From an uncultured Saccharofermentans sp. (GTDB taxonomy: Bacteria > Bacillota > Clostridia > Saccharofermentanales > UBA5734), in the NCBI GenBank assembly GCA_963677835.2, contig CAXXUX010000001.1, positions 1,536,362 through 1,600,361 of the forward strand: DNA of 64,000 nucleotides. The letters run 5' to 3'. Position numbers and translations under genes: made by a program. The notes beneath the pieces are model-generated. The model saw nothing but the letters and a program-made list of their open reading frames with translations, had not been told where the DNA came from and did not search any database. Positions 28,141 through 56,592 of this stretch are shown here, in pieces; the first letter of the stretch is position 1; every line of letters starts with the position of its first letter.

Positions 28141-28779
28141 ATGATCATGAAAGTTTTACTGGTTAACGGCAGCCCGCATCAAAAGGGATGCACCTATACG
28201 GCGCTTTGTGAAATTTCCAAAGAATTAGAAAAAGAGGGCATCGAAACGGAGATTTTTCAGCTGGGCTTAAAACCGATCAGGGGCTGCACAGGCTGCGATC
28301 AATGTGTGGATAAAAATCCTGGCCGATGCGTTTATGATGATGATCCGGTCAATATCGCCATTGCCAAGGCGAAAGCCGTCGATGGCTTTATTTTCGGCTC
28401 GCCGGTCCACTATGCAGGAGCCTCAGGGGCCATGACCTCATTTCTGGACAGGCTGTTTTATGCGGGCGGAGACTTGTTCGAATACAAACCCGGGGCCGCA
28501 GTCGTCAGTTGCCGCAGGAGCGGAGCAACGGCCGCTTTTGATCAATTGAACAAGTATTTTACGATTGCCAATATGCCGGTGGTCTCCTCTCAATATTGGA
28601 ACATGGTGCATGGGAACACGCCTTCGGAAGTTGTTCAGGACCTTGAGGGCATGCAAATCATGCGGACATTGGGAAAAAATATGGCTTGGCTGCTGAAATC
28701 GATCGAGGCTGGTCAAAAAGCCGGGATCGCATTGCCTCAAAAGGAAGAGCCGCAATATACGAATTTTATCAGAGCATAG
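28141..28779 (+). CDS. flavodoxin-fold NAD(P)H-dependent FMN reductase / iron-sulfur flavoprotein-like protein
   Basis: 212 aa. MKVLLVNGSPHQKG plus Cys motif CTGCDQC. Alternative start at 28147. Confidence 0.7.
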   Translation: MIMKVLLVNGSPHQKGCTYTALCEISKELEKEGIETEIFQLGLKPIRGCTGCDQCVDKNPGRCVYDDDPVNIAIAKAKAVDGFIFGSPVHYAGASGAMTSFLDRLFYAGGDLFEYKPGAAVVSCRRSGATAAFDQLNKYFTIANMPVVSSQYWNMVHGNTPSEVVQDLEGMQIMRTLGKNMAWLLKSIEAGQKAGIALPQKEEPQYTNFIRA

Positions 28780-28799
28780 CAGAACAGGAGTACATTCAC

Positions 28800-29519
28800 A
28801 TGACAGGCATGGGTACAATTGTCAACGTTTTAGCGGTTCTTGCCGGCGGCTGCATCGGGATGTTTTTGAATAAAGGTTTAAAAAAGCGTTTTCAAATAAT
28901 CATGATGCAGGCATTAGGGGTATGCGTCCTGTTTATCGGGATTGCCGGAGCCTTGAAAGGATTATTTGTCGTCAATGGATCTGCGCTTGAAACTGCCGGG
29001 ATCATGATGATGATCATTTCCATGGTGGCCGGCGCCCTCATCGGTGAAGCGATCGACATCGAAAAGAGAATCGAGACCTTTGGCGAATGGCTGAAGATGA
29101 AAAGCAAAGACGGCAGCGATTCAAAATTTGTGCAAGGCTTTGTATCGACCACGCTGGTCATCAGCATAGGGGCCATGGCCGTAGTTGGCTCCCTGCAGGA
29201 CGGATTGACCGGCGATGCTTCCATGCTCTACGTCAAGGCTATTCTGGACCTGATTGTCGTGATGATTTTCGCCTCGGCATTTGGCAAGGGCGCAATCTTC
29301 TCGGCCATTCCGCTTGGCCTTTTCCAAGGATCGATCACCGCTTTTGCCCACTTCATCGAACCCATTCTTACGCAGCAAATGATATTGAACATATCGCTTG
29401 TCGGTTCCATCCTGATTTTCAATGTCGGGGTCAATATGGTTTTTGACAAGAAGCTCAAGACCGGCAACATGTTGCCGGCCCTTTTGATTGCCGCCATCTG
29501 CAGCGTGATTAAATTTTAG
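28800..29519 (+). CDS. DUF554-family membrane protein
   Basis: The ATG at 28800 follows AGGAG. MTGMGTIVNVLAVLAGGCIGMF is a typical N-terminus for the family. Multi-pass hydrophobic profile. Confidence 0.7.
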   Translation: MTGMGTIVNVLAVLAGGCIGMFLNKGLKKRFQIIMMQALGVCVLFIGIAGALKGLFVVNGSALETAGIMMMIISMVAGALIGEAIDIEKRIETFGEWLKMKSKDGSDSKFVQGFVSTTLVISIGAMAVVGSLQDGLTGDASMLYVKAILDLIVVMIFASAFGKGAIFSAIPLGLFQGSITAFAHFIEPILTQQMILNISLVGSILIFNVGVNMVFDKKLKTGNMLPALLIAAICSVIKF

Positions 29520-29703
29520 TGTAAATCGTATAAACTGACAAGTTAATTTCATGCCTCTTTCAATGCGCTGGCGCGCCTTTTGATGGGCGTTTGCCGGCCT
29601 CTTCAAGTTCGGATCAAATTCTCGACCAAGTCAATATTTTTATAAAATCTCAATAAAAGCAAACTTTTTTGGCAATATATTTTTAATTCCCAGCAAAAAC
29701 ATC

Positions 29704-29732
29704 TTGACAACGATCAAGAAGGGTTATATATT
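29704..29732 (+). promoter_or_regulatory. predicted promoter TTGACA-17-TATATA
   Basis: Consensus -35 hexamer and an AT-rich -10 with 17-nt spacing, upstream of the FCD-domain regulator gene. Confidence 0.45.
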
Positions 29733-29805
29733 TGCAGTATAGTCCTCCTCAATGATGAGAAGGCCAAACAGGCCAAAAAGAACAGGACATTTTGGAAGGC
29801 AGGTA

Positions 29806-30594
29806 ATGTTTTTGGAAAATATTTCGCACGATCTTGAAGATTTGATTGAATTGAACTGCTTTTCATCCAAAAGTGAAGTCATTCAGTATATGATCCTGGA
29901 TTATATGAGCCGTTCGAAAGAGACTGTGGGTTCATGGGCATTGCGGGTGATGCTCGAGTATCGGGGGGTAAGCATCAGCGTGGCATCGGTCGGCCGGGCG
30001 TTGATCGAACTCGACTCCAAAGGCTATACGGAATCCATTTCAACCAAAGGCCGGATTATTGCCGCCAAAGGCCGGGAATTTCTTGAAGAGAAAAAGAATC
30101 TGGTTGAGCACGAATTGCTGCAGAAGAGACTGCTGAAATCAGTGACGCCCCAGGATTACAGCGAATTACTGGATCTGGTGCGGGCCAGACGTTCCCTGGA
30201 AGCCGAATCGGCCCGGCTAGCCGCCAAACGGGCGACTGACCAGGAGAAAAAGCAGTTGCTGGCTAGCCTGAACAATCATATTACGAAAGTTGCCTGCGGC
30301 ATCGACCCGACAAATGAAGCGTTTGATTTTCATATTAAAGTGGCTGAAGCGTCCCATAGCCGGTTCATTTTGGCAACAATCAATCTCTTGATCTATTACA
30401 ACGAGCAGCTCGAATACAATTTCCCCTATCTGGTCACCCGTGAGCTTGGAACACAATATAATCAGGATCACCAGGCCATTGCGGAAGCCATTTTCCAGGG
30501 TGAGCCGGCGGAAGCCGAAAAGGCGATGCGGTTGCATATGACCAATATTCTGGAAGCGCTGAAGAGCCAGGGGAAAATCGAAGAAGCAGAATAA
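29806..30594 (+). CDS. FCD-domain (FadR C-terminal type) transcriptional regulator with atypical N-terminal winged helix
   Basis: ORF 29752-30594. The ATG at 29806 follows GGAAGG and lies downstream of the predicted promoter. The C-terminal region (ARRSLEAESARLAAKRAT...FHIKVAEASHSRF...HQAIAEAI) looks like an FCD domain. Confidence 0.65.
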   Translation: MFLENISHDLEDLIELNCFSSKSEVIQYMILDYMSRSKETVGSWALRVMLEYRGVSISVASVGRALIELDSKGYTESISTKGRIIAAKGREFLEEKKNLVEHELLQKRLLKSVTPQDYSELLDLVRARRSLEAESARLAAKRATDQEKKQLLASLNNHITKVACGIDPTNEAFDFHIKVAEASHSRFILATINLLIYYNEQLEYNFPYLVTRELGTQYNQDHQAIAEAIFQGEPAEAEKAMRLHMTNILEALKSQGKIEEAE

Positions 30595-30647
30595 AGGGCG
30601 GTTCCAGGCCGAGTTAAAGATTAGGCATGAAAATCAATTGAAAGGGT

Positions 30648-31823
30648 ATGACAATGATCTCGTTATCGGAAATTTCAAAAACTGTTGAGCCATCAAGAAT
30701 CCGGAAGATGTTCAATTTGTCGCAAGGGCTGGAAGACATCGTCAGTTTTGCTTTAGGCGAGCCGGATTTTACAGCCTCGCAAAATGTAGTCGATGCAGCT
30801 GTCAAAGCGATGGCGGAAGGAAAGACCAAGTACGCGCCCAACGCCGGCATCGTCCAGCTTCGGAACGCCGTTGCCAGGCACTTGAATCAGAAAATCGGGA
30901 ACGACTATAATCCGGACGATGAAATAATCATCACGACCGGAGGGATGCAGGCCCTGTTCATGTCCATGCTGACCATCCTTGATCCGGGAGACGAAGTGAT
31001 TCTCAGCAATCCTTGCTGGACCAACTATCCGCAGCAAATCAAAATGTGCGGCGGAGTCCCCAAATTTGTCAATGTCTATGAAGAAGATGAATTTGCATTT
31101 ACTGAAGAAAACCTTAGAAATGCCATAACCGGCAAGACCAAGGCAATTGTGATCAATTCACCGGCAAACCCGACCGGCGCGGTAATCAGCCTGGCGTGTT
31201 TGGAAAAAATTGCAGCGATTGCCATCGAATTTGACCTTTACGTCATTTCCGATGAAGTCTATAAATATATTCTTTATGATGGCCTGAAGCATTCAAGCAT
31301 CGCATCACTTCCGGGGATGAAGGAGCGGACGATCATTATCGACAGCTTTTCCAAAACATACGCCATGACCGGATGGCGCGTCGGCTATGCCGCAACCAAT
31401 TCTTCCGTGATCAAGAACATGGTCAAATATCAGGAGAACGTCGCCGCCTGTGTGAATACGCCGGCTCAATATGCGGCACTCGAAGCCCTGGAAGGCCAGC
31501 AGGAACATCTGCATCATATGCTGAACGAATACACCAGAAGGCGCGATTTGATATACGAAGGGATCAATGCCATCCCGGGTTTATCTTGCGCCAAACCTAA
31601 AGGGACTTTCTACTCGTTTATCAATATCAAAAAGACCGGATTATCTTCGGATGATTTTGCCATGCAGCTGCTGAATCAGGAACGGGTTGTCACCATTCCG
31701 GGAAACGCATTTGGCGAAGCCGGGGAAGGATTTATCCGGATTTCGTATGCCACGTCGGAAGCGCTGATCAAAGAAGGGCTTTTGCGCATGCAACGGTTTG
31801 TCAATTCATTGAAGGTCCATTGA
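30648..31823 (+). CDS. pyridoxal-phosphate-dependent aminotransferase, class I (AspB-like)
   Basis: 391 aa with PLP-lysine motif SFSKTYAMTGWRVGY and NSPANPTG. Alternative start at 30654 with better RBS spacing. Confidence 0.85.
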   Translation: MTMISLSEISKTVEPSRIRKMFNLSQGLEDIVSFALGEPDFTASQNVVDAAVKAMAEGKTKYAPNAGIVQLRNAVARHLNQKIGNDYNPDDEIIITTGGMQALFMSMLTILDPGDEVILSNPCWTNYPQQIKMCGGVPKFVNVYEEDEFAFTEENLRNAITGKTKAIVINSPANPTGAVISLACLEKIAAIAIEFDLYVISDEVYKYILYDGLKHSSIASLPGMKERTIIIDSFSKTYAMTGWRVGYAATNSSVIKNMVKYQENVAACVNTPAQYAALEALEGQQEHLHHMLNEYTRRRDLIYEGINAIPGLSCAKPKGTFYSFINIKKTGLSSDDFAMQLLNQERVVTIPGNAFGEAGEGFIRISYATSEALIKEGLLRMQRFVNSLKVH

Positions 31824-31851
31824 CTATTGATGTTGCAGTGAGGAATGCTTT

Positions 31852-33054
31852 GTGGAGATTAATATCGATCGACTGAAGAATAGTCTGGAACGGCTGGGCC
31901 AGATAGGGTTTGAAGAATCGGTTGGCGTAACCAGGCTTGCCTATTCAAAAGAATACGGGCAAAGTGTCGCATTTGTCGAAGCCCTTTTCCAGGAAGCCGG
32001 AATGACCACCCATATCGACCCGGTAGGCAATCTGATCGGCAGATTGGCCGGCGCTTCGGGAAAAACCATCATGATCGGCTCACATATCGATACGGTACCG
32101 GGCGGCGGGATATTTGACGGTTGCCTGGGCGTTATGGGAGGGATTGAATGCGTTAGGACACTCGTCGAAAATCATTATCCAAACAACCATAGCATCGAAG
32201 TTGTGGCCTTTATCGAAGAAGAAGGCAATGTTGTCGGAGGCACATTTGGCAGCAAATGCCTGGTCGGCGACCCGATCGATGATAGCTTTGCCAGTCATTT
32301 TGCATCGGCCGGCCTATCCTTTGAAGCCGTCAGGCAAGCCAGGCGCGATGCCTCGTCGATTGGCTGCTACCTTGAATTGCATATCGAGCAGGGCGGCATA
32401 CTGGACCATGAGAAAATTGCGATTGGCGTTGTCGAAGGGATCGTCGGGATCCACCGGTACAAGATCAAAATCGAAGGCTCGGAAAATCATGCCGGAACAA
32501 CGCCGATGTATCTTCGAGATGACGCCCTCGTCAAAGCCTCGCACATAATCGGCCGGCTGGACACGCTGGTCCGGGAAACGGACAGGGATCTGGTCGGGAC
32601 TGTCGGGGTCATTTCCATTAAGCCCTGCGCGGTCAATGTAATCCCTGGACAAGCCGAATTTGTCATAGAAATGCGGGATAAAAACGTGGCCAACATGGAT
32701 CAGGTCATATCCAGGCTCCAGGCGGAATTTTCCGATTATAAGATGCAAATGGAATGCATTTTACGCGAAGGTGCCACGGCCATGGACAAGAACATTCAGG
32801 ATACCATTCGGCAATCCAGTCAAAAACGGGGGCACGCCTATAAGAATATGTATAGCGGTGCCGGACACGATGCGATTAATCTGGCAAAAGTAACGCCAAC
32901 CGGAATGATTTTCATTCCCAGCATCAAGGGGGTCAGCCATTCAATCAGAGAAAAGAGTGATTGGACTGATGTCAAGAATGGCACAGAGGTGTTGCTTGAA
33001 ACAATTGTCGCATTAGATCGAACGATTAACGATAAGGACGGAACAGTGTTGTGA
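31852..33054 (+). CDS. M20-family Zn-dependent amidohydrolase (N-carbamoyl-L-amino-acid hydrolase / allantoate amidohydrolase / beta-ureidopropionase family)
   Basis: 400 aa with a GTG start after GAGGAA. Motif IGSHIDTVPGGGIFDGCLGV is typical of AmaB/AllC-type enzymes. Confidence 0.8.
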   Translation: MEINIDRLKNSLERLGQIGFEESVGVTRLAYSKEYGQSVAFVEALFQEAGMTTHIDPVGNLIGRLAGASGKTIMIGSHIDTVPGGGIFDGCLGVMGGIECVRTLVENHYPNNHSIEVVAFIEEEGNVVGGTFGSKCLVGDPIDDSFASHFASAGLSFEAVRQARRDASSIGCYLELHIEQGGILDHEKIAIGVVEGIVGIHRYKIKIEGSENHAGTTPMYLRDDALVKASHIIGRLDTLVRETDRDLVGTVGVISIKPCAVNVIPGQAEFVIEMRDKNVANMDQVISRLQAEFSDYKMQMECILREGATAMDKNIQDTIRQSSQKRGHAYKNMYSGAGHDAINLAKVTPTGMIFIPSIKGVSHSIREKSDWTDVKNGTEVLLETIVALDRTINDKDGTVL

Positions 33055-33776
33055 AGATCAAAATCATCAATCCGAATACGACTCTGAGCATGACCAGAAA
33101 CATCGAAGCGGCAGGCAGAAAATATGCCCGGAAAGATACGGACATCCTATGCGTCAGCCCCAGGACCGGTCCGGAAAGCATTGAATGTTATGTCGACGAG
33201 TATCTGGCGGTGCCAGGTGTCCTGGAAGAAATTCTGATCGGGGAAAAGGAAGGTGATGTCGATGCCTATGTGATTGCCTGCTTTGGAGATCCAGGATTGC
33301 AGGCAGCACGTGAATTAACCAAAAAACCGGTAATCGGCATAGCTGAAGCAGCGATTGCCGCTGCCAAAATGCTGGCTCCCTGTTTTTCGGTCGTATCGGT
33401 TCTGGATCGGTCAAGACGCGTTACGGAAGATGTTCTGCAGCTTCATGGCGCCGAGAGATTTTGCAAATCAATCCGCTCAACGGGATTAGGCGTCCTGGAT
33501 TTTGACCGCGACATGGCCAAAGGCCTGGCAGCGCTGGCAGAACAAAGTAAAAAAGCAGTCGAAGAAGACAAGGCGGAATGTATTTTGCTGGGTTGTGCAG
33601 GTTTCGTGCAATTTGTCGAAGATCTGCGGAACCAACTAGGCGTTCCGGTTCTGGACGGCGTAAGTCCTGCTGTCAAATTTGCAGAAGCATTAGTTGATCT
33701 GGGGTTGTCAACCAGTAAAATCAGGACTTGGGGATACCCTGAGAAGAAACAGATAACCGGATATCAGTTTTTCTAA
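33051..33776 (+). CDS. Asp/Glu/hydantoin racemase family protein (hydantoin racemase-like)
   Basis: 241 aa, GTGA overlap with the carbamoylase gene. Two Cys motifs, IACFGDPGL and LLGCAGF. Confidence 0.75.
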   Translation: MKIKIINPNTTLSMTRNIEAAGRKYARKDTDILCVSPRTGPESIECYVDEYLAVPGVLEEILIGEKEGDVDAYVIACFGDPGLQAARELTKKPVIGIAEAAIAAAKMLAPCFSVVSVLDRSRRVTEDVLQLHGAERFCKSIRSTGLGVLDFDRDMAKGLAALAEQSKKAVEEDKAECILLGCAGFVQFVEDLRNQLGVPVLDGVSPAVKFAEALVDLGLSTSKIRTWGYPEKKQITGYQFF

Positions 33777-33938
33777 TCACGACATTCATCTAGTAAAGAC
33801 AATTTCAAAGACCGGGAAATGACATCAATGGGCCGTTTTGGTTATCTCTCGTCAGTGTTTTAGCTTCCTATGAGAAAGATAGGCTTATATTGTTGCGCTT
33901 AATCAGGGTGTATTTGGTTTCGATCAATTTTGGCGTTA

Positions 33939-33966
33939 TTAAAATACCGTCTGATTGGTATTTTAA
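33939..33966. promoter_or_regulatory. inverted repeat TTAAAATACC-N8-GGTATTTTAA, candidate operator
   Basis: Perfect 10-bp arms read directly, ending 34 nt upstream of the SBP start codon. Confidence 0.45.
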
Positions 33967-33999
33967 AATAATTTAATCATCATTCAAGGAGGAAAGAAA

Positions 34000-35010
34000 A
34001 TGAAAAGAACGACCATGATTGCACTTGCGGTTCTGATGATGCTGGCCTTTGTGTTCACTGCCTGCACGCCGGACACCACAACAACCCAGGCGACCACGGC
34101 AGCCGGCAGCACAACCGCTGCAAGCTCAGGCGCAGAGACAACCTCATCCCAGTCTGGCACCTCTGGAAAAATCAAAATCGGTGTCAGCATCAATGCACTC
34201 TCCAATATCCATAACCAAAAGGTGTTTGAAGGCACGCAAAAAGCGGCCAAAGATGCCGGCCATGAAGTCATTGCAACCAATGCAAACGGAATTGCCACCC
34301 AACAGGTCACCGACATCGAGACCTTGATCCAGCAAAGCTGCGATGTTATCATTATCCAAAATGGCGATACTGAAGCCTTGAAGAATGTGGTCAAAGAAGC
34401 AAGCGAACAAGGCATCTACACCATCAGCATGGAATCTGGCTGGATCCCTGGCGTTTCCGCCATGTTCGCCTTGAACGACTTTGCAATCGGTTCGGCTTTG
34501 TATCCGATGGTTGCCGGCGAAATGGGCTTTGCCGGTGAAGTGATCTGCATCAACCACAATGACCACCCGGCTATCCGCGCCAGGCGCAATATCCAGGAAG
34601 CAGTCCTCAAAGAATACACCAACATCAAGAATGTCACGACCGTTACCTCAGGTTTCCCCGGCACCGTGGAACTGGCCTATAAAGGCGTTGAAAGCGCCTT
34701 GCAGGCTCATCCGGATGTCAAAGCGATCTGGGCGACCTTCGACCTGGAAGCGATCGGCGCAGCTCAGGCCTGTAAAGCGCTTGGCAGAGAAGACATCATC
34801 ATTGTTGGCGTTGATGGCGAAGCGGACGCCCTGAAGATGATCAAAGAAGGCGGCCCGATTATCGCAACCGTCATCGGCGATCAGGAATGGTCCACGACCG
34901 AAGCGGTCAAAGCTGCCGAAAAACTTGCAGCAGGAGAAAAAGTCCAGGCCTTCTATTCCATTCCTTTTGAAATCGTCACGAAAGACAATGTAGACAAATA
35001 CATTAGCTAA
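34000..35010 (+). CDS. ribose/monosaccharide-type (CUT2) ABC transporter substrate-binding lipoprotein
   Basis: 336 aa, RBS AAGGAGG, lipobox VFTAC plus a Thr/Ser linker. RbsB-like core (KIGVSINALSNIHNQ...). Confidence 0.8.
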   Translation: MKRTTMIALAVLMMLAFVFTACTPDTTTTQATTAAGSTTAASSGAETTSSQSGTSGKIKIGVSINALSNIHNQKVFEGTQKAAKDAGHEVIATNANGIATQQVTDIETLIQQSCDVIIIQNGDTEALKNVVKEASEQGIYTISMESGWIPGVSAMFALNDFAIGSALYPMVAGEMGFAGEVICINHNDHPAIRARRNIQEAVLKEYTNIKNVTTVTSGFPGTVELAYKGVESALQAHPDVKAIWATFDLEAIGAAQACKALGREDIIIVGVDGEADALKMIKEGGPIIATVIGDQEWSTTEAVKAAEKLAAGEKVQAFYSIPFEIVTKDNVDKYIS

Positions 35011-35026
35011 TCTAAAAACCGATTGG

Positions 35027-35063
35027 CTCCGGGCAAAGGAAAGCCTTTACCCTTTGCCCGGAG
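35027..35063 (+). other. intercistronic stem-loop after the SBP gene (13-bp stem CTCCGGGCAAAGG/CCTTTGCCCGGAG)
   Basis: A perfect inverted repeat with an 11-nt loop, followed by TTCATTC. It lies between the SBP and ATPase genes. Confidence 0.55.
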
Positions 35064-35102
35064 TTCATTCTATGATCCATTCAACGTAAGGAGGAATATA
35101 AC

Positions 35103-36608
35103 TTGCCTTCCGAAAATGTAATATGCATGAAGAACATCGATAAGCATTACGGCGGCATTTACGCGTTGCGCAACGTATGCCTGGAACTGAAAAAAGGTAC
35201 CGTGCATGCGTTGGTCGGAGAAAATGGCGCAGGAAAGTCAACCTTGATGAAAATCCTATCGGGCGTTGTTAAAAAAGACCAGGGAAGCATCGAGCTTTAT
35301 GGTGAAGAAACGGAAATCAACAGCTATGTCCATTCGCAGGAACTGGGCATTGCGCTGGTTCCCCAGGAACTGGCCCTGGTTGATTACTTTTCTGTCAGTG
35401 AAAACATTTTTCTCGGCAGAGAACCCTATCGTAAAGGGACCAAGTTCATCGACTGGAAACGGCTTCACAAAAACACGGCCAATCTGCTTAAAGACCTGAA
35501 GATTGAATTGGATCCCAGAAAGAAGGTCAAGGATCTCAGCGTCTCGGACAAACAGATGCTGGTCATTGCGCGGATACTGTCCCTGAATGCCAACATCATC
35601 ATCATGGATGAGCCGACAGCTAGGCTTGGGCATCACGAAGTCGACAAGCTGCTGGAATACATCAGGTATCTGAAAGCTAACGGGAAAAGCATTATCTACA
35701 TCTCGCACCGGCTTGAAGAGATCTTTACCATAGCCGACGAAGTGACCGTTTTGCGAGACGGCCAGGTCGTTGGCAACATGCCGGTCAATGATTTGGACGA
35801 AAAAGACCTGATCAAGCTGATGGTCAACCGGGCTATCGACAATAACCATAACGAGTATATCAAGAAGAGATTGATTGGCGACGAAATTTTAAGGGTAGAA
35901 AATTTAAGCCGGAAAAATGTGATCAAGGACGCCAGCTTTTCGCTTCACCGCGGTGAAGTCCTCGGATTTTTTGGTATTGTCGGTTCGGGCAGGACCGAAT
36001 TGATCCGCGCGATGCTTGGCATCGACAAGAAAGACACCGGCAATATTTATCTGGAAAACAAACTGGTCCAGTTTAAAAACATCAATGATTCCCTGGAAGC
36101 CGGGCTGGCGCTGGTTCCGGAAGAAAGAAGGCAGCAGGGGCTGGTCCTGAGCCTGCCGATCCGCACCAATGTGACGTTGGGCAGTCTGGAGCGGTTCTGC
36201 AAATTTGGCTTGATCCAGGCTAATCATGAAAAGAAATTCGTATCGCAAACAGTCGACAAACTGCGGCTGGTAAGACGGAGCATTGAACAGAAGGCTTCCG
36301 ATTTAAGCGGAGGGAATCAGCAAAAAGTGGTCCTGGCCAAATTGATCGGCCGGGGCAAAATTAAAATCTACATTTTGGATGAGCCAACTAGAGGAATCGA
36401 TGTCGGCGCCAAGAGTGAAATTTATGCGTTGATATCCAGCATTGCTGAAGAAGGAATCCCGGTGATTGTCATATCATCAGAAATACCAGAGCTGCAAGCA
36501 ATTTGCGACCGCATCATTGTCATGAAAAAAGGACAGGTGGTTACATCTTTGAATAGAGAAGAATTCAGTAATCCGGAAAATATACTGAAACATGCAGTTG
36601 GAGGATAA
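35103..36608 (+). CDS. sugar ABC transporter ATP-binding protein with duplicated NBD (RbsA/MglA-like)
   Basis: 501 aa with a TTG start after AAGGAGG. Walker A motifs GENGAGKST and GIVGSGRTE, and signature LSGGNQQK. Confidence 0.9.
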   Translation: MPSENVICMKNIDKHYGGIYALRNVCLELKKGTVHALVGENGAGKSTLMKILSGVVKKDQGSIELYGEETEINSYVHSQELGIALVPQELALVDYFSVSENIFLGREPYRKGTKFIDWKRLHKNTANLLKDLKIELDPRKKVKDLSVSDKQMLVIARILSLNANIIIMDEPTARLGHHEVDKLLEYIRYLKANGKSIIYISHRLEEIFTIADEVTVLRDGQVVGNMPVNDLDEKDLIKLMVNRAIDNNHNEYIKKRLIGDEILRVENLSRKNVIKDASFSLHRGEVLGFFGIVGSGRTELIRAMLGIDKKDTGNIYLENKLVQFKNINDSLEAGLALVPEERRQQGLVLSLPIRTNVTLGSLERFCKFGLIQANHEKKFVSQTVDKLRLVRRSIEQKASDLSGGNQQKVVLAKLIGRGKIKIYILDEPTRGIDVGAKSEIYALISSIAEEGIPVIVISSEIPELQAICDRIIVMKKGQVVTSLNREEFSNPENILKHAVGG

Positions 36609-36609
36609 C

Positions 36610-37575
36610 ATGATATTACAAGACTCAAAAAAGAAACTAGAAGTGTCTAATTATGCCAAGCGATATGGGACTTTGGTCGGGCTGATCGCTATCTGCGTTA
36701 TCTTTTCGTTTTTAAGCCCGGTCTTTTCAACCATGGGCAACATTTTAACCGTTTTAAGGCAAATTGCGATGCTCAGCATCATGGGCGCCGGCCTGACGGT
36801 CGTCATGATCACCAAGCGCATCGATTTGTCGATTGGCTATTCGGTCAGCTTTCTGGGCATACTTTGCGCGGCGCTGATCGTAGACTACGGCATTCCGATG
36901 TGGCCGGCCATTCTGATTACCCTGGTCGCCGGCATGCTGGTTGGCCTGCTCAACGGCGTTGCCGTCGCGGTGATCGGCATACCCGACTTCATTGCAACCC
37001 TGTCGGTCGGTTTTCTGGTCTCCGGCGTCAATCAGGCCTATACCAAGGGGCACCCGATTTCCGGCCTGCCGGATGCCTTCAATATCTTTGGCGCTTCCAA
37101 AATTATCGGAATACCCAGCGCGATCTTTATCATGTTCGGATTCCTGATCGTCGTCTATATCGTTTTGTCGCATACCAGATTTGGCCGATACACCTACGCC
37201 ATCGGCGGCAATGAAGAAGCGGCCATGATGTCCGGCGTCAAAGTCAAGTTCAACCAGATCATCGGCTATATTCTCTGCGGTGTTGGCGTGGCCATAACCT
37301 CGGTGGTTCTGACATCGCGCCTGGGCTCGGCCCACCCCCTGGCCGGCGATGCTTTGCTGATGGATGCGATCGCCACCGTTTACCTGGGCGGCACGGCTTT
37401 CAAGGAAGGCGAACCTAACCTGGGCGGAACCTTTGTGGGCGCGCTGATCATCGGCGTACTGGGCAACGGACTGACGCTTTTGAATGTTCCCTACTATTAT
37501 CAGAACATCACCAAAGGCCTGGTCATCCTGCTGGCAGTAACCATTACTTCGCTGCAGAGGATCAAGAAAAAATAA
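36610..37575 (+). CDS. ABC transporter permease (RbsC-like)
   Basis: The ATG at 36610 follows GGAGG. Polytopic hydrophobic profile. Confidence 0.85.
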   Translation: MILQDSKKKLEVSNYAKRYGTLVGLIAICVIFSFLSPVFSTMGNILTVLRQIAMLSIMGAGLTVVMITKRIDLSIGYSVSFLGILCAALIVDYGIPMWPAILITLVAGMLVGLLNGVAVAVIGIPDFIATLSVGFLVSGVNQAYTKGHPISGLPDAFNIFGASKIIGIPSAIFIMFGFLIVVYIVLSHTRFGRYTYAIGGNEEAAMMSGVKVKFNQIIGYILCGVGVAITSVVLTSRLGSAHPLAGDALLMDAIATVYLGGTAFKEGEPNLGGTFVGALIIGVLGNGLTLLNVPYYYQNITKGLVILLAVTITSLQRIKKK

Positions 37576-37594
37576 TTGTTAAGGAGATTGTCAA

Positions 37595-38995
37595 ATGAGC
37601 ACGTTGATTAAAAATGGCTGTATTCTGACTGCGGAAAATGAATACCAGGCTGATATTTTTATCGAAAATGAAAAGATCAGCATGATTGCAGATTCGATCA
37701 ATCTCGCGGCAGATACCGTTATTGACGCAAAAGGCAAATATGTTTTTCCCGGCGGCATTGACCAGCACACGCATTTTGACGCGCTGTGCAATTCCGGCGA
37801 CGAAAATACTTCAGGCTACGAGGCGACCGGATCGGTCATTGCCGGCGGCACGACGACCATTGTGGATTATGCGCCGCAAGATCCTGGCTGCGGCCTGATC
37901 GATTCGATTGATCGGCGGATCAACGAGCGGGCCAAAGGCCTGATCGCGGTGGACTTCGCCTTGCATGCCCTGGTTACGGAAGTGTCAGATAAAATATTCG
38001 ATGAACTTCCGCTGCTGGCAGCGCATGGCGTTCCTTCGATCAAGCTTTTCATGGCATACAAGGGCTCGCCGCTTTATGTGGATGACGGAACCTTGTACAA
38101 AACACTTCAAATGTCGACCGAATATGGCGTTACGGTCTTCGTGCATGCTGAAAATGCCGATATCATCAATCTAATGCAAAAACAGCTCGTATCCGAAGGG
38201 AAAACCGAACCCAAATACCACGCGGATTCAAGACCCCCCTTTGTTGAAGCTGAGGCGACACAGCGGGCGATCCTTCTGGCCAGGGCCGTCAACGCGCCCA
38301 TCCATATCGTGCATGTATCCTGCAAGGAAGCCCTGGATGCGATCCGTGATGCCCGTTCCCAAAATTTGCCGGTATTTGCCGAAAGCGTCACCCATCATCT
38401 GGTTTTAACCCGCGAAGAATTGGAGCGGCCTGATTTTGAAGGCGCAAAATATGTCTGTTCGCCGCCGCTAAGAGACAACAGCCATATCGACGCCTTGTGG
38501 GAAGGCCTTCGGAACAATTGGCTGCAAACCATTTCGTCCGACCATTGCGGCATCAACTTCAAAGTCATGAAACATTTTGGCGACGACGATTTTTCACAAA
38601 TCCCCAATGGCAGTCCAGGAGCGGCCGACCGGATGCATATGATCTGGACAAACGGCGTTGCCAAAGGAAAAATCAGCAGGCAACGGTTTGTCGAAGTGAC
38701 TTCGACAAATCCGGCCAAGATCAACGGCATCTATCCCAGAAAAGGTCAGATCGGCGTCGGCGCGGATGCGGATATTGTCATTTTCGACCCGGAGTACCGG
38801 GGCGTGGTCAAATTCAGCGACAACCCCAACGGCGTCGACTATAACGTCTATGAAGGCCGGGAGCAAATCGGCCGCAGCGAAAAGGTGTTGTTAAGAGGCA
38901 AGCTTGTCGTTGACAACGGAAAATTCATTGGCGAAATGGGGCAAGGCCAGTTTATTCCAGGCAAACCGTTTGGCTCTTGCTATCAAAACCTTTAA
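37595..38995 (+). CDS. dihydropyrimidinase / D-hydantoinase (cyclic amidohydrolase)
   Basis: 466 aa. Motifs GGIDQHTHFD, IKLFMAYKG (carbamylated Lys region), VHAEN, IVHVS, FEGAKYVCSPPLR, SSDH, ADADIVIFD. Confidence 0.85.
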   Translation: MSTLIKNGCILTAENEYQADIFIENEKISMIADSINLAADTVIDAKGKYVFPGGIDQHTHFDALCNSGDENTSGYEATGSVIAGGTTTIVDYAPQDPGCGLIDSIDRRINERAKGLIAVDFALHALVTEVSDKIFDELPLLAAHGVPSIKLFMAYKGSPLYVDDGTLYKTLQMSTEYGVTVFVHAENADIINLMQKQLVSEGKTEPKYHADSRPPFVEAEATQRAILLARAVNAPIHIVHVSCKEALDAIRDARSQNLPVFAESVTHHLVLTREELERPDFEGAKYVCSPPLRDNSHIDALWEGLRNNWLQTISSDHCGINFKVMKHFGDDDFSQIPNGSPGAADRMHMIWTNGVAKGKISRQRFVEVTSTNPAKINGIYPRKGQIGVGADADIVIFDPEYRGVVKFSDNPNGVDYNVYEGREQIGRSEKVLLRGKLVVDNGKFIGEMGQGQFIPGKPFGSCYQNL

Positions 38996-39028
38996 ATTGC
39001 AGACCGGTCTTTAAGGTGGTGCGCATTG

Positions 39029-39676
39029 ATGAAAGAGACAACAATCCAGAAAATCAGAGCCGGTAAAATCGTGGCCATTTTCCGCAGGGTGGAATTGGAA
39101 CAGGTGGAAGCTGCAGCTCAGGCGTTAATATCGGGCGGCCTCTCGCTGATTGAAGTGGCGCTGGATCATAAAAGCGCCGAAGGCCGGGAAAATGCGCTGC
39201 AAGCCATCAAGCTGCTGCAAAGCACTTTCAAAGACCGCGTCTTAGTCGGAGCGGGCACCATATTGTCGGAGGAAGACGTGCAAATGGCTTGCGACGCGGG
39301 CGCCCGATACATCATATCTCCCGATACGAACGAAAAAGTCATCAAATGCTGCAACCGGCTGGGCGTCGTATCCATGCCGGGCGCGTTGACTCCCAGTGAA
39401 ATCACGAAAGCGTTCGAATATGGCGCCGATATCGTCAAACTTTTCCCGGCAGGGGAAATGGGCGTCGATTATACGAAAGCAATCATGGCGCCGCTGGGAC
39501 ATCTTCCGCTCGTGGCCGTTGGCGGAATCAACGAAACCAACATCGGTAAATTCATGCAAAGCGGCGTCATTGGCGTTGGCGTCGGCTCCAACCTGGTCAA
39601 TGGCAGCTTGATCAAGGCTGGACGTTTTGAAGAATTGGCCGCCCTTGCGCAGTCGTTTTTCAAGCAGCTCCAGTAG
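39029..39676 (+). CDS. eda: KDPG / 4-hydroxy-2-oxoglutarate aldolase family protein
   Basis: The ATG at 39029 follows AAGGTGGTG. Motifs IVAIFR, IEVAL, GAGTIL, VKLFPAG (Schiff-base Lys region). Confidence 0.75.
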   Translation: MKETTIQKIRAGKIVAIFRRVELEQVEAAAQALISGGLSLIEVALDHKSAEGRENALQAIKLLQSTFKDRVLVGAGTILSEEDVQMACDAGARYIISPDTNEKVIKCCNRLGVVSMPGALTPSEITKAFEYGADIVKLFPAGEMGVDYTKAIMAPLGHLPLVAVGGINETNIGKFMQSGVIGVGVGSNLVNGSLIKAGRFEELAALAQSFFKQLQ

Positions 39677-39712
39677 TTCGACACCCATCAAGTTAAAATT
39701 CTGGAGGAGAAA

Positions 39713-40969
39713 ATGGAAAATAAATATAATCCTTATCAGCAAATGCTATCCATCTTGGATCAGGCCGCCGAAAAACTCGGATTGGCTCAGGATGATTACA
39801 TTGTATTGAAATATCCGGAACGGGAACTGAAAGTCGCTGTTCCGGTCGAAATGGATGACGGAACCTTGAAGGTGTTTACCGGATACCGGATCCAGCATTC
39901 AAGCTCGCGCGGCCCCTGTAAAGGCGGCATCCGCTACCATCCCAGCGTCGATCCGGATGAAGTCAAGGCTTTGGCAGCCTGGATGACCTGGAAATGCGCA
40001 GTAGTCAACATCCCTTACGGCGGGGCCAAAGGCGGGATCGAAGTCGATCCGTCCACCCTGAGCACCAAAGAATTGTCGAGGCTGACCCGGCGCTACACCG
40101 CGGCAATTTTGCCGATATTAGGCCCTGAACGGGATATCCCGGCGCCGGACGTCAATACGGACGCGCGGATCATGGGCTGGATCATGGACACCTACAGCAT
40201 GTTCAAAGGGTATGCGGTGCCTGGCGTTGTCACCGGGAAGCCGATCGAGATCGGCGGGTCGCTTGGCCGCAAGGAGGCAACTGGCCGCGGCGTCACGATT
40301 GTCACGGAAGAGATTGCCTTCCGCGCAGGGTTGCCGATCCAGAAGGCCAAAATAGCGATTCAGGGATTTGGCAAGGTCGGCAGCACGGCGGCAGAATTGT
40401 TTTATGAGAAAGGCTACAACGTTGTTGCCATCAACGATGTGAATTGCGGCCTTTATAATGAAAAAGGGCTGAATATTGCCGAAGTGCTGAAGCACGTGCA
40501 GAACTGCGGGACAATCAAGGGCTATACGGAAAAAGGGATTAAAGAGATCAACAATGAAGAGCTCTTGACGATGGATGTCGACATCCTGGTTCCGGCGGCC
40601 ATGGAAAATCAGATTACGGCAGAAATCGCGAAGCAGATCAAAGCCAAAATCATTGTCGAAGGCGCCAATGGCCCGACAACGACCGAAGCCGATGCCATCC
40701 TGAACGAAAAAGGCATCATTGTCGTTCCGGACATTTTAGCCAATGCCGGCGGCGTTGTCGTATCCTATTTCGAGTGGGTGCAAAACCTCCAGGCCATTTT
40801 CTGGGACGTGCATGAAGTCAATTCCATGCTCAAGAAAATCATGCTAAAAGCCTTTGATGACGTCTACCAGCTGTCCTGCGAGAAAAACGAATCCCTGCGC
40901 ATTTCAGCTTATATGGTTGCCCTTGACCGTGTGGTCAAAGCCAAAAAGATTAGAGGGGTATTCCCTTAA
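39713..40969 (+). CDS. gdhA: Glu/Leu/Phe/Val dehydrogenase, glutamate dehydrogenase-like
   Basis: 418 aa, RBS GGAGGAG. Motifs CKGGIRYHP, PYGGAKGG, GFGKVG. Confidence 0.85.
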   Translation: MENKYNPYQQMLSILDQAAEKLGLAQDDYIVLKYPERELKVAVPVEMDDGTLKVFTGYRIQHSSSRGPCKGGIRYHPSVDPDEVKALAAWMTWKCAVVNIPYGGAKGGIEVDPSTLSTKELSRLTRRYTAAILPILGPERDIPAPDVNTDARIMGWIMDTYSMFKGYAVPGVVTGKPIEIGGSLGRKEATGRGVTIVTEEIAFRAGLPIQKAKIAIQGFGKVGSTAAELFYEKGYNVVAINDVNCGLYNEKGLNIAEVLKHVQNCGTIKGYTEKGIKEINNEELLTMDVDILVPAAMENQITAEIAKQIKAKIIVEGANGPTTTEADAILNEKGIIVVPDILANAGGVVVSYFEWVQNLQAIFWDVHEVNSMLKKIMLKAFDDVYQLSCEKNESLRISAYMVALDRVVKAKKIRGVFP

Positions 40970-41021
40970 TCGCATAGATCCTCCTAAATCCGGCTGATAT
41001 TCAGCCAATCCTCCGTACCAG

Positions 41022-41068
41022 GCGGCCTGCATGTTTAATTGGCTCATGCAGGCCGCTATTTATTTTTC
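41022..41068 (+). terminator. intrinsic terminator (12-bp stem GCGGCCTGCATG/CATGCAGGCCGC plus T-tract)
   Basis: A perfect stem with an 11-nt loop, followed by TATTTATTTTTC. It ends the hydantoin-type operon. Confidence 0.75.
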
Positions 41069-41089
41069 TATCTAAACCGGAAGCAGGGC

Positions 41090-41117
41090 TTGACAATCAC
41101 TATTCGAATGATAATAT
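41090..41117 (+). promoter_or_regulatory. predicted promoter TTGACA-16-TAATAT (TG-extended)
   Basis: Read directly. It is followed immediately by a GGTATATAT motif and a leader of about 230 nt before the first gene. Confidence 0.5.
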
Positions 41118-41354
41118 GGTATATATGAGGTTAAAACTTGTCCATGTCATATACATAAGACAAAAAGATGGCGACTAAAATTGACCTGAAATTTTCATCA
41201 CAAAACCGGACTGCAGACCAGATCTGAAAGACCATTTAGCCAGAGTCACTGTTTGATGTAGACGGAACTGTCACTTCGTCAACAACGGACTGCTGTTGTT
41301 GTGTACAAATCTGCATCTGAAATAGATCCATTGAAAGGGCAAGAAGGAGAAATT

Positions 41355-42185
41355 ATGAAGCTTTCATTTTTTACGGCAAGTCTTGCGCGTTATCCGCTGG
41401 AAAAATGTTTTCAGGTTGCAGCCGACTGCCAATTTGAAGGCGTTGAAATTTGGGGCGGCCGGCCCCACGCCTTTGCGCCGGACTTGAAAGACGGCGATAT
41501 CAATCATTTAAACCAGCTGGCCAAAGACTACAATCTGCCAATTATCGCTTTCGAGCCGGAACAGCCCGTCCATCCTTATAGCATCATGCATCGCAATGAA
41601 AAATGGCGCAAAGAAAGCATGGAATATTTCAGGATTTGCCTGGAGATGACCAAAGCCATGAACGCCAATCTGATGGTCATGGCGCCGCAGCATCCAGGTT
41701 ACGGCACGGATGGTGAAGAGAACTGGAAAATCATGATCGAAGGTTTGCATGAACTGGCAGAATTCGCTGAGAAAATCGGGACGATCCTGTGTTTGGAAAC
41801 CATAACGCAGTATGAAGGAAATCTCCTGACCCGCGCCGATGACTTGGTCCGGGCCATGCGTGAGCTTAAATCGCCCAATGTCAAGGGCATGCTGGATCTG
41901 GTTGCGCCGCTGACCATGGCTGAGCCGGCGTCTGAATACTTTGAAAAACTGGGTGCGGACATGATCCATATTCATCTTGTGGATGGCAATATCAACCATG
42001 AAGATCACTTGATCGCCGGCGACGGCGTCATCCCTTTTGTTGAAACGCTTGAAATGATCGATTCGTATGGCTACCAAGGTTATGGCAGTCTCGAAATCTT
42101 CCAGGAATACAGGATTGATCCGGTCCTGTTTACCAAAAAAGCCGTCCGGGCTGTCCGCGAATGCCAGGCCCAAATGAACAAATAA
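41355..42185 (+). CDS. xylose-isomerase-fold TIM-barrel sugar epimerase, fructoselysine 3-epimerase (FrlC)-like
   Basis: The ATG at 41355 follows AAGGAG. Motif GVEIWGGRPHAFAPDL resembles E. coli FrlC as I recall it. 276 aa. Confidence 0.65.
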   Translation: MKLSFFTASLARYPLEKCFQVAADCQFEGVEIWGGRPHAFAPDLKDGDINHLNQLAKDYNLPIIAFEPEQPVHPYSIMHRNEKWRKESMEYFRICLEMTKAMNANLMVMAPQHPGYGTDGEENWKIMIEGLHELAEFAEKIGTILCLETITQYEGNLLTRADDLVRAMRELKSPNVKGMLDLVAPLTMAEPASEYFEKLGADMIHIHLVDGNINHEDHLIAGDGVIPFVETLEMIDSYGYQGYGSLEIFQEYRIDPVLFTKKAVRAVRECQAQMNK

Positions 42186-42215
42186 TTTTAGCTTAAGGAT
42201 CATAGGAGAAGAAAT

Positions 42216-43100: not shown

Positions 43101-43133
43101 CATTAATTTTTGGGGGAGGAGCATGACTTAAAG

Positions 43134-45015: not shown

Positions 45016-45058
45016 ATTTGTCCTCAAGAACATGAAAAAACGCGGGGAGGCGCCTGAA

Positions 45059-45999: not shown

Positions 46000-46019
46000 A
46001 AAACAGGAGGTAGTATCAA

Positions 46020-46832: not shown

Positions 46833-46875
46833 TCAACATCAGCTAAAAATATATTGTGGTGTAGAGGGAATAAAA

Positions 46876-56579: not shown

Positions 56580-56592
56580 CGGCTTTCTCCTG

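Follow-up and report, generated by a model that had tools for sequence, protein, structure and literature searches.

The window analysed here is a stretch of 64,000 nucleotides from an uncultured Saccharofermentans sp. (assembly GCA_963677835.2, contig CAXXUX010000001.1, positions 1,536,362 to 1,600,361), and our subject is a cluster of ten consecutive plus-strand genes at 29806-40969. Judging from sequence, this cluster would represent a hydantoin-utilisation system of new composition, of which we found no published description. A hydantoin racemase, a hydantoinase and a carbamoylase are joined by a sugar-type importer, an aminotransferase, a glutamate dehydrogenase (GDH), a pyruvate aldolase and a regulator. 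We give an even chance to the view that these genes form a catabolic locus of one or two transcripts, whose substrate is a 5-monosubstituted hydantoin taken up from outside and bearing a hydroxylated, sugar-like side chain. All of the open reading frames (ORFs) are real and contiguous, and the gene starts used here agree with independent gene calls on two metagenome contigs carrying identical proteins. The initial annotation of this DNA had counted eleven genes; the ORFs number ten, as do the entries of its own list. Every gene family that it named was borne out by Pfam and NCBIfam scans. A further contig, taken to belong to the same genome, encodes a CysRS with only 68% identity to that of the nearest species representative, a metagenome-assembled genome labelled Mageeibacillus.

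The hyu-type character of the cluster is carried by three enzymes: a hydantoinase with metal-site motifs, a two-cysteine racemase and an N-carbamoyl-amino-acid amidohydrolase. The first (37595..38995) is a cyclic amidohydrolase of the D-hydantoinase/dihydropyrimidinase family, scoring 514.1 bits against TIGR02033 (cut-off 393.25), and its nearest solved structures are the D-hydantoinases 1NFG and 1K1D, about half identical to it as counted from the alignments. It carries the motifs DQHTH, SIKLFMAYK, VHAEN, VHVS and SSDHC, which, matched as motifs and not through a residue-numbered alignment, we take to be the binuclear-metal ligands of the family (His-x-His, the carboxylated Lys in KLFMAYK, two His and Asp). 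The racemase (33051..33776; PF01177, 189 bits) is closest among solved structures to the allantoin/hydantoin racemases 3QVJ (200 bits) and 5LFD. It keeps both cysteine motifs intact, VIACFGDPGL and LLGCAGF, the catalytic positions presumably being those given in the literature on the S. meliloti enzyme. The carbamoylase (31852..33054), an M20-family N-carbamoyl-amino-acid amidohydrolase, reaches 360.6 bits against TIGR01879 (cut-off 204); among solved structures it comes closest to 3N5F, the L-carbamoylase of Geobacillus (234.8 bits), with beta-alanine synthase at 165 bits. Its gene and that of the racemase share 4 bp (33051-33054), and the GTGA overlap proposed earlier follows directly from these coordinates.

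The importer is of the CUT2 type (TC 3.A.1.2), with a Peripla_BP_4 substrate-binding protein (SBP), a single polypeptide holding two ATP-binding cassette (ABC) domains and a BPD_transp_2 permease, all encoded on the plus strand. The SBP (34000..35010; PF13407, 134.4 bits) is a lipoprotein with the lipobox ...FTAC followed by a Ser/Thr-rich linker, and it shows only distant kinship to CUT2 proteins in the PDB (104 bits or less), the nearest of which, we presume, bind ribose and other pentoses, polyols or inositol. The two fused domains of the ATPase (35103..36608) match PF00005 in two stretches, and its best NCBIfam models are of the AraG/XylG/RbsA type (about 496 bits, below the cut-offs). The RbsC-like permease (36610..37575, this start taken from the independent gene call; alternative start 36592) scores 106.3 bits against PF02653 and 240 bits against the RbsC model, below its cut-off.

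The remaining genes would serve the fate of the released amino acid. The aminotransferase (30648..31823; PF00155, 241.8 bits) is a class-I, pyridoxal-phosphate-dependent enzyme resembling aspartate aminotransferase (AspAT); PRK07682 (417 bits) and the archaeal AspAT model (410 bits) are its best NCBIfam matches, both below cut-off, and its nearest solved structures are the P. horikoshii aspartate/aromatic aminotransferases 1GD9 and 1DJU (357 bits). The GDH (39713..40969; PF00208 and PF02812) is of the hexameric type and obtains 516-521 bits with GdhA models, below the equivalog cut-offs. Between the hydantoinase and GDH genes lies a class-I pyruvate aldolase of the Eda family (39029..39676, alternative start 39026), a family that acts on 2-keto-3-deoxy-6-phosphogluconate (KDPG) and 4-hydroxy-2-oxoglutarate (KHG); it passes the TIGR01182 cut-off (168.3 bits against 156.05). 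Aligned to its nearest structure, the T. maritima KDPG aldolase 1WA3, it keeps the Schiff-base K(LFP), E, R and GAGT motifs as well as the phosphate-loop motifs GG/GVGS, and it is 47% identical to the Eda of a related locus (L026), whose gene directly precedes one resembling a 2-keto-3-deoxygluconate (KDG) kinase. At the head of the cluster stands a transcriptional regulator of 262 aa with an FCD domain (29806..30594, alternative start 29752; Pfam FCD, 66.8 bits). Its ATG at 29806, preceded by a GGAAGG Shine-Dalgarno sequence, is also the start in the independent gene call. The winged helix of this protein matches HTH_12 (25.2 bits), not the canonical Pfam GntR domain, and its best NCBIfam matches, far below cut-off, are carboxylate sensors of the LldR/NanR/PdhR/GlcC type; probably it senses a carboxylate intermediate.

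The conservation of this gene set in other genomes, a check that the initial annotation had asked for, provides the second line of evidence. Homologues of the SBP at E<1e-30 numbered 70. Of the loci gathered, 14 came from species-representative genomes, 57 from metagenomes and 8 from exact-protein look-ups; genes were mapped by BLASTP against reference proteins, and dereplication at 90% SBP identity left 34 lineages. Because a hydantoinase gene adjoins the transporter in 23 of the 25 lineages whose downstream sequence extends for 5 kb or more (most of them also with an M20 amidase), the SBP family is a reliable marker of hydantoin-type clusters. The lower-pathway genes follow the same pattern: within 10 kb, the 14 lineages whose SBP is at least 50% identical to that of the window include ten with a clear class-I aminotransferase, nine with a PfkB kinase and eight with a pyruvate aldolase. 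The seven cluster-linked PfkB proteins that were scanned all find their best NCBIfam match, in each case below the curated cut-off, in a kinase model for KDG and 2-keto-3-deoxygalactonate or in the kinase portion of the model for fusions of KHG/KDPG aldolase and sugar kinase. As a rough estimate, we assume a chance of about 1% per genome of meeting a kdgK or eda gene within 10 kb.

Clusters of the window's own type (type A) hold the aminotransferase, M20, racemase, ABC, hydantoinase and pyruvate aldolase genes and usually a PfkB kinase gene too. The closest relative, a Clostridia metagenome-assembled genome with an SBP 79% identical (L001), reads FCD regulator, M20, racemase, ABC, hydantoinase, alanine dehydrogenase, aminotransferase, Eda, KdgK. 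Faecalicatena contorta and gut contigs (L023) have aminotransferase, M20, racemase, ABC, hydantoinase, Eda, IclR, KdgK, and Cytobacillus (L025) has LacI, racemase, ABC, hydantoinase, M20, KdgK, Eda, aminotransferase. A Brevibacillus locus (L020) ends in hydantoinase, M20, aminotransferase and KdgK, the kinase here being without an aldolase. In Evansella cellulosilytica (L017), KdgK, Eda and UxuA genes come before FCD regulator, aminotransferase, racemase, ABC, hydantoinase, M20 and DHDPS, while Paratissierella (L022) adds an HpcH aldolase to the type A set. The metagenome contig L171 carries PfkB/Eda, IclR, aminotransferase, M20, racemase, ABC, hydantoinase and PfkB, and, with the contig L172, it provides further PfkB, Eda, HpcH, DHDPS, RraA-like and transaldolase-family genes. 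A functional link between the hyu trio and the enzymes of transamination, aldol cleavage and glutamate dehydrogenation thus gains support, the same set recurring in Bacilli and Clostridia in varied orders and, in Cytobacillus, L001, Brevibacillus and L171, with the lower-pathway genes interleaved among the hyu genes.

Individual steps are also served by different proteins in different loci. Aldol cleavage may fall to Eda, DHDPS (Evansella, L172) or HpcH (Paratissierella, L172), phosphorylation to PfkB or the non-homologous DGOK (L083), and decarbamoylation to M20 or a carbamoyltransferase resembling aspartate carbamoyltransferase (ATCase), paired with a carbamate kinase (L079). Deamination may fall to the aminotransferase or to a Thr/Ser-dehydratase-like enzyme with RidA, and the amino group to GDH (window, L028) or alanine dehydrogenase (L001). 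Such non-homologous replacement at each step is what we would call the signature of one conserved chemical logic. The proposed transdeamination pair of aminotransferase and GDH is strengthened by the same comparison: a GDH 57% identical to that of the window lies beside the L028 cluster too, though at another place in the gene order, and the occurrence of alanine dehydrogenase instead of GDH in L001 is the pattern expected of a transdeamination partner. The regulators beside these clusters (FCD, LacI, IclR, SorC) are of the sugar-acid type. The racemase and ABC proteins stay 50-79% identical across Bacilli and Clostridia, whereas in the Bacilli variants identity to the window's hydantoinase and M20 enzyme drops to 31-35%, these proteins belonging to another subfamily, with ErtD and allantoinase as best matches; the racemase-transporter module is therefore the constant core. 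Overall, the racemase/ABC/hydantoinase/carbamoylase set together with aminotransferase, kinase and aldolase does recur, with linkage extending across Bacillota. The combination occurs in many gut and soil Bacillota. Members of the cluster family come from metagenomes of the human, mouse and horse gut and of the rumen, as well as from fermenters, and culturable carriers include Evansella cellulosilytica, Faecalicatena contorta, Halalkalibacter oceani, Paratissierella segnis and isolates of Brevibacillus and Cytobacillus. Mouse-gut metatranscriptome assemblies contain pieces of the Faecalicatena-type cluster, covering it from the aminotransferase gene through those for hydantoinase and Eda; this cluster is expressed in vivo, although the pieces do not speak to operon structure. 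For the window itself, the sequencing runs that turned up were of the DNA type, with no RNA among them.

Several related loci deserve separate comment. In L079 (peat/soil metagenome contig Ga0187873_1000894, 4309-19134), genes for hydantoinase, ATCase-like carbamoyltransferase, aminotransferase, carbamate kinase, Eda and KdgK lie together. The ATCase-like protein scores 287 bits against TIGR00670 (PyrB cut-off 237) and reads PVATSHP at the place of the RxQxER stretch, which we take to bind aspartate in E. coli PyrB. This locus appears to be an energy-conserving variant, in which the M20 hydrolase would be replaced by phosphorolysis with ATP formation. Type B clusters (racemase, ABC, M20, hydantoinase, nitroreductase, sometimes with a Thr/Ser-dehydratase-like PALP gene) include one from the genome of the window itself, in another part of its 2.0-Mb contig (L015/L016, 9217-16774), where racemase, SBP, ATPase, permease, nitroreductase, M20 and hydantoinase genes are accompanied by a LysR regulator; its SBP paralogue P0041 is 53% identical to that of the window. 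A candidate paralogue inside the window, the 337-aa ORF at 61359-62372 (minus strand), proved to be a SIS-domain FrlB-like protein and no SBP. Six lineages or more share the nitroreductase (L015, L018, L022, L025, L032 and L044-type), which may have either the hydantoin ring or the substituent at C5 as its target. A preprint reports that nitroreductase-fold CDO-like genes are enriched beside hydantoin racemases (10.1101/2023.09.25.559410), which by analogy may bear on type B clusters.

Type C clusters are minimal (SBP, M20, ABC, hydantoinase), have a YheO-like regulator, sometimes with RidA or a dehydratase, and are common in human-gut contigs. Those of the human-gut contigs L062-L085 and of L057, L072, L083 and L172 carry a YheO-like PAS/HTH_22 regulator and often RidA with a Thr/Ser-dehydratase-like PALP gene, a combination that suggests hydantoins of beta-hydroxy amino acids; L083 has in addition Eda and a 2-keto-3-deoxygalactonate kinase of the DGOK family. 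L170, second only to L001 in closeness to the window cluster, has an SBP 72% identical and the same order of FCD regulator, aminotransferase, M20, racemase and SBP. In L170 the M20 gene and the racemase gene are both broken into two ORFs (8047-9957), which may reflect long-read assembly frameshifts or real pseudogenes, and three serine-recombinase genes lie just upstream.

Taken together, the genes allow us to propose a pathway whose substrate, reactions, order of steps and stereochemistry are all predicted. The lipoprotein SBP and the CUT2 transporter would import the hydantoin. The two-cysteine racemase would interconvert its C5 enantiomers, so that a stereoselective hydantoinase could use up a racemic substrate; the very presence of a racemase suggests that the substrate is chemically formed. 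Ring opening by the hydantoinase would give an N-carbamoyl amino acid, from which the M20 amidase would produce CO2, NH3 and the free amino acid. The aminotransferase would then pass the amino group to 2-oxoglutarate, and GDH would regenerate 2-oxoglutarate while freeing the third nitrogen. The resulting 4-hydroxy-2-oxo acid, most likely a KDG-type 2-keto-3-deoxy-aldonate, would be phosphorylated by a kinase encoded elsewhere in the genome, and Eda would cleave the product to pyruvate and a triose or aldehyde. The recurrent KDG-type kinases and pyruvate aldolases support the earlier suggestion of a side chain with a gamma-hydroxyl or a polyol, the substrate itself being unproven. That suggestion came with the remark that no such pathway had been described, and our full-text literature searches agree: they turned up no hydantoin cluster with a CUT2 importer, an aminotransferase and a KDG-type exit, and nothing relevant on polyhydroxyalkyl hydantoins, 3-deoxyglucosone-urea adducts, hydantoinase with KDG, or carboxymethylhydantoinase genes.

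A number of points weigh against a sugar-like substrate. The literature searched documents no natural polyhydroxyalkyl hydantoin, and we know of no natural 5-(polyhydroxyalkyl)hydantoin. The fold of the SBP is by itself no proof of a sugar-like ligand, and members of the same SBP family also accompany minimal hydantoinase-M20 clusters without an aldolase. The aminotransferase, kinase and GDH assignments are best matches below equivalog cut-offs, as are, the Eda of the window excepted, those of the aldolases with respect to curated ones, and the combination of a D-type hydantoinase and an L-type M20 carbamoylase has no evident stereochemical rationale. What is predicted as a single operon may be split into two transcripts by an internal gap of 223 bp. 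Finally, tblastn with seven cluster-linked KdgK-like queries found no KDG-kinase homologue within the 64-kb window, the matches (23-26% identity only) being to ribokinase/FrlD-like PfkB genes. For want of a kinase the window variant is incomplete for the KDPG route, unless the kinase is encoded elsewhere or Eda takes an unphosphorylated substrate.

It is this missing kinase that lends weight to the best of the rival explanations, an aspartate route, which fits the gene set of the window equally well and which we nevertheless hold to be unlikely. In that scheme, 5-carboxymethylhydantoin (hydantoin-5-acetate, L or D) or dihydroorotate would be converted through N-carbamoyl-L-aspartate, aspartate and oxaloacetate to pyruvate, with M20 as ureidosuccinase, the AspAT-like aminotransferase and GDH yielding oxaloacetate, and Eda as oxaloacetate decarboxylase. 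All ten genes of the cluster would find employment and no kinase would be needed, just as none is found. Eda enzymes do decarboxylate oxaloacetate; the best named matches of the aminotransferase are AspATs; and the second-best model for the M20 enzyme, N-carbamoyl-L-glutamate amidohydrolase, places acidic side chains within the range of the family. Moreover, the distant variant L079 combines a carbamoyltransferase above the PyrB cut-off with a carbamate kinase, and Lieberman and Kornberg reportedly described a carboxymethylhydantoinase and a ureidosuccinase in Clostridium oroticum, said to be a relative of Faecalicatena. However, an aspartate route leaves unexplained the KDG-kinase-like PfkB genes in nine of the 14 lineages whose SBP shares 50% identity or more with that of the window, the DGOK of L083, the Brevibacillus kinase without an aldolase and the DHDPS-family aldolases. 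The altered sequence at the presumed Asp-binding stretch of the L079 protein, the lack of an orotate reductase gene in the cluster and a sugar-type CUT2 SBP, odd for a dicarboxylate-like ligand, also speak against it.

The same aldolase could instead act on KHG. Since the Eda family is bifunctional for KHG and KDPG, a hydantoin with a 2-carboxy-2-hydroxyethyl side chain might be degraded by way of a 4-hydroxyglutamate-type amino acid to KHG and then to pyruvate and glyoxylate, again with no need for the kinase that the window lacks. AspAT-type enzymes transaminate 4-hydroxyglutamate, and the DHDPS family includes KHG aldolases such as the mammalian HOGA1. Yet the kinases of the relatives would be left unexplained, the scanned flanking ORFs contain no genes for handling glyoxylate, and we know of no natural source of such a hydantoin; we therefore judge this route to be very unlikely.

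The M20 and GDH genes bring in a further candidate, hydantoin-5-propionate, already named as an alternative in the initial annotation. Derived from histidine or ergothioneine, this compound would pass through N-carbamoyl-glutamate to glutamate, which GDH would oxidise, with the aminotransferase and Eda as accessories. A GDH gene in the operon agrees with such a route, as does the position of ErtE, the N-carbamoyl-L-glutamate amidohydrolase model, as second-best for the M20 enzyme; the hydantoinases of the Bacilli variants even match ErtD best (397 bits). Still, the window proteins fall far short of the cut-offs for ErtE (365.5 bits, cut-off 520) and ErtD (226.8 bits, cut-off 650), whereas the hydantoinase clears that of TIGR02033; genes of the ergothionase, thiourocanate and urocanase kinds are absent; there would be no work for the aminotransferase, aldolase and kinases; and the closest relative has alanine dehydrogenase in place of GDH. 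We consequently do not favour this alternative and regard it as highly improbable.

A simpler possibility is generic nitrogen scavenging from dihydropyrimidines or from simple or purine-derived hydantoins such as allantoin and ureidomethyl-hydantoin, Eda and GDH being unrelated neighbours that happen to share the strand. The racemase has allantoin racemases as its nearest structures, minimal SBP-M20-ABC-hydantoinase clusters occur in human-gut contigs, and the hydantoinase is a true member of TIGR02033, like the HyuA of E. coli and C. difficile that opens ureidomethyl-hydantoin (PMC12507026). Nonetheless, no gene for PydA, XdhD, YgfK, SsnA, YgeW or YgeX was found in or beside the cluster. The M20 enzyme is neither of the YgeY type (28 bits, cut-off 321) nor AllC (TIGR03176, 273.3 bits, cut-off 597.75), and the hydantoinase remains below the cut-off of the allantoinase model TIGR03178 (270.5 bits, cut-off 357.85). 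The subfamily model NF006771 is missed by little (397.9 against 399). Above all, aminotransferase, aldolase and kinase genes recur across distant lineages far above our rough chance estimate, and they are interleaved with hyu genes. We thus think scavenging alone improbable and return to the catabolism of a hydantoin with a sugar-like side chain.

As regards the layout of the locus, intergenic distances run from -4 to 92 bp, save for the 223-bp gap between the racemase and binding-protein genes. Upstream of the regulator, a predicted sigma-70-like promoter, TTGACA-17-TATATT (29704..29732, plus strand), agrees with the consensus at 11 of 12 positions and ranks first in the region. TTGACA and a 17-nt spacer had been annotated there correctly, but the -10 hexamer had been given as TATATA, which would need a 15-nt spacer. 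The strong terminator annotated at the end of the cluster stands: after the GDH gene, a 13-bp perfect stem (41021-41057) with a U-rich tail (41021..41068, plus strand) folds at -26.3 kcal/mol (z = -5.3), and 0 of 200 shuffles were as stable. No convincing plus-strand terminator was found inside the cluster, where GC content is even. An Rfam search of 29400-41400 at E≤1 gave no riboswitch or leader RNA, and we took one sub-threshold minus-strand 'uup' match for chance. The 223-bp gap holds a perfect inverted repeat, TTAAAATACC-N8-GGTATTTTAA (33939..33966), on account of which one or two transcripts are possible. At 0 mismatches the repeat is unique in the window; with no second copy near the 29704 promoter, an operator shared by both intergenic regions was rejected, and the repeat may mark a candidate operator or internal promoter region.

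On contig L013, otherwise protein-identical to the window, coordinates shift by 1 bp somewhere between 33776 and 34000, which implies that strains or assemblies differ by a one-base indel within this putative regulatory gap. Directly upstream of the cluster promoter, genes for an NADPH-dependent FMN reductase and a DUF554 membrane protein (28141-29519, plus strand) form a pair that also precedes the cluster on L013.

The surroundings of the cluster contain genes related to fructosamine utilisation: FrlC-like genes at 41301 and 51539, an FrlB-like SIS protein, the kinase FrlD at 56593-57396 (minus strand; 339 bits, cut-off 247) and a further FrlD-like kinase. With such Frl-like neighbours, the hydantoin locus looks like part of an island for the utilisation of glycation products. 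α-Dicarbonyls condense with ureas, and glyoxal and urea give hydantoin (reviewed in PMC12917490). It is tempting to think of a pathway dedicated to glycation-derived hydantoins, such as 5-(2,3,4-trihydroxybutyl)hydantoin or its tetrahydroxybutyl analogue, degraded via a 2-amino-(3-deoxy)aldonate to KDG/KDPG, a proposal that we advance only tentatively and hold to be on the unlikely side. Racemic hydantoins of this kind would form non-enzymatically from 3-deoxyglucosone or glucosone and urea, or from arginine hydroimidazolones that have lost ornithine, and they would yield exactly the intermediates predicted by the gene set.

Two gene groups in these surroundings can be described separately. 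A distinct plus-strand operon (41090-48399), with its own promoter-like site at 41090 (TTGACA-16-TAATAT with TG), encodes a fructoselysine-3-epimerase-like protein (275 bits, cut-off 305), a NagB-like deaminase, a ribokinase-like PfkB, a DHDPS-family protein, a second PfkB, BtpA/SgcQ and an FGGY kinase, and looks like a pathway for an amino sugar or Amadori product. The PfkB ORF at 45289-45999 (plus strand) aligns only to positions 73-297 of the ribokinase model and may be 5'-truncated or mis-started. The FGGY ORF (46537-48399) overlaps the BtpA gene (46020-46832, plus strand) by about 300 bp, and its homology begins near residue 115, so its true start is probably further downstream. A second Amadori-like cluster on the minus strand (55704-63258) comprises a GntR/UTRA regulator, the FrlB-like SIS protein, an FrlD-like kinase, a membrane protein of the Na+/H+-antiporter family, a 541-aa Amidohydro_3 protein, the fructoselysine 6-kinase with the score given above and an Amidohydro_2 protein. 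We take Amidohydro_3 to be the Pfam family of the D-aminoacylase-like UacY.

To our knowledge, natural substrates have been established for few of the bacterial D-hydantoinase/racemase/carbamoylase sets, although the enzymes are in industrial use. The cluster family described here ties such a set to a sugar-type ABC importer, a transdeamination pair and an exit through a 2-keto-3-deoxy-sugar-acid kinase and aldolase, and this linkage to a KDG-type exit leads to a concrete prediction of the substrate class, namely hydroxyalkyl or polyhydroxyalkyl hydantoins. Candidate genes are also offered for new aminotransferase, carbamoyltransferase and SBP specificities. Seen beside the ureidomethyl-hydantoin route of urate degradation, the clusters suggest that hydantoins are a commoner anaerobic currency of nitrogen and carbon than assumed. 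If an origin in glycation were true, the widespread D-hydantoinase/racemase/carbamoylase genes of gut and soil Bacillota would acquire a natural substrate and a physiological role, and a new class of Maillard products would join those mineralised by gut bacteria.

Finally, we would like to compare the cluster with known systems. PydB of reductive pyrimidine catabolism (PydA-PydB-PydC) is in the same dihydropyrimidinase family, and some PydC enzymes are M20 amidases; this pathway was rejected, as neither the ten cluster genes nor the 17 scanned flanking ORFs include a DHO_dh/PydA-like gene. Unlike Pyd, the window has a racemase, an M20 enzyme nearer to L-alpha-carbamoylase than to beta-alanine synthase (235 against 165 bits) and a class-I aminotransferase for alpha-amino acids in place of a class-III beta-alanine transaminase. 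In allantoin degradation, the equivalog cut-offs of AllB and AllC are missed, and no cupin ureidoglycine hydrolase or ureidoglycolate enzymes lie nearby. Ergothioneine utilisation through ErtD, a hydantoin-5-propionate amidohydrolase, and ErtE (NCBIfam NF058538-40) likewise joins a hydantoinase-family ring opener to an M20 carbamoylase for the use of a natural 5-substituted hydantoin, and the product amino acid feeds a dehydrogenase. Apart from the missed ErtD/ErtE equivalog cut-offs, the window lacks ergothionase, thiourocanate hydratase and desulfhydrase, and it has the racemase, ABC importer, aminotransferase and aldolase that Ert lacks. A 'hydantoinase' of R. gnavus raised on agaro-oligosaccharides (PMC11581127) is of the hydantoinase/oxoprolinase family, lies in another cluster and is irrelevant here.

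Closer parallels exist with the lower half of the reductive uric-acid pathway, in which SsnA leads to ureidomethyl-hydantoin, HyuA to 2,3-diureidopropionate, YgeW/UacY and YgeY to diaminopropionate, and YgeX acts last (PMC12507026, PMC12990295). Both systems have a hydantoinase of the TIGR02033/IPR011778 type, a natural 5-substituted hydantoin being its substrate in the urate pathway, and anaerobic Bacillota are common to both, as pyruvate would be as end product. Ureido groups are removed in the urate pathway, and would be removed here, by an M20 enzyme or by a carbamoyltransferase with carbamate kinase, the latter, among our loci, in L079. As an explanation of the window, however, reductive uricolysis was rejected: the HyuA-like enzyme is its only member present, the M20 enzyme is of the TIGR01879 family and not YgeY, and the window cluster has no XdhD, YgfK, SsnA, YgeW, YgeX or PALP gene. 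The PALP genes of related loci are Thr/Ser-dehydratase-like, not YgeX. The window would deaminate by transaminase and GDH, not by diaminopropionate ammonia-lyase, and it adds an ABC importer, a racemase and Eda.

The exit of the proposed pathway resembles sugar-acid catabolism, where an amino-sugar-acid-like compound is likewise turned into a 2-keto-3-deoxy-aldonate for cleavage by the Eda family. The semi-phosphorylative Entner-Doudoroff, or KDG, module consists of KdgK and KdgA/Eda; the window holds Eda with its Schiff-base Lys and lacks an adjacent KDG kinase. In the D-glucosaminate pathway of Salmonella, the ammonia-lyase DgaE yields KDPG for the aldolase DgaF, whereas here the amino acid would arise from a hydantoin via a carbamoyl intermediate and be deaminated by a class-I aminotransferase or, in the variants, by a dehydratase-like enzyme with RidA.

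The entry of the pathway, in turn, is that of the classical hyu clusters (Arthrobacter aurescens DSM 3747 hyuP-A-H-C, Pseudomonas sp. NS671, Agrobacterium/Sinorhizobium), which have in common a racemase, a hydantoinase, an M20 carbamoylase and a dedicated transporter. There, the racemase makes racemic 5-substituted hydantoins fully convertible. Unlike in those clusters, the transporter of the window is a three-component CUT2 ABC system and not an NCS1 permease (Mhp1/HyuP), none of the annotated neighbours of the cluster being an NCS1-family hydantoin permease, and its hydantoinase is of the D-hydantoinase type. The principal difference lies beyond the amino acid, where the window adds an aminotransferase, GDH and a pyruvate aldolase, to which the relatives add a KDG-type kinase. 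Because these enzymes follow, the cluster would encode complete catabolism, reaching past the release of an amino acid.

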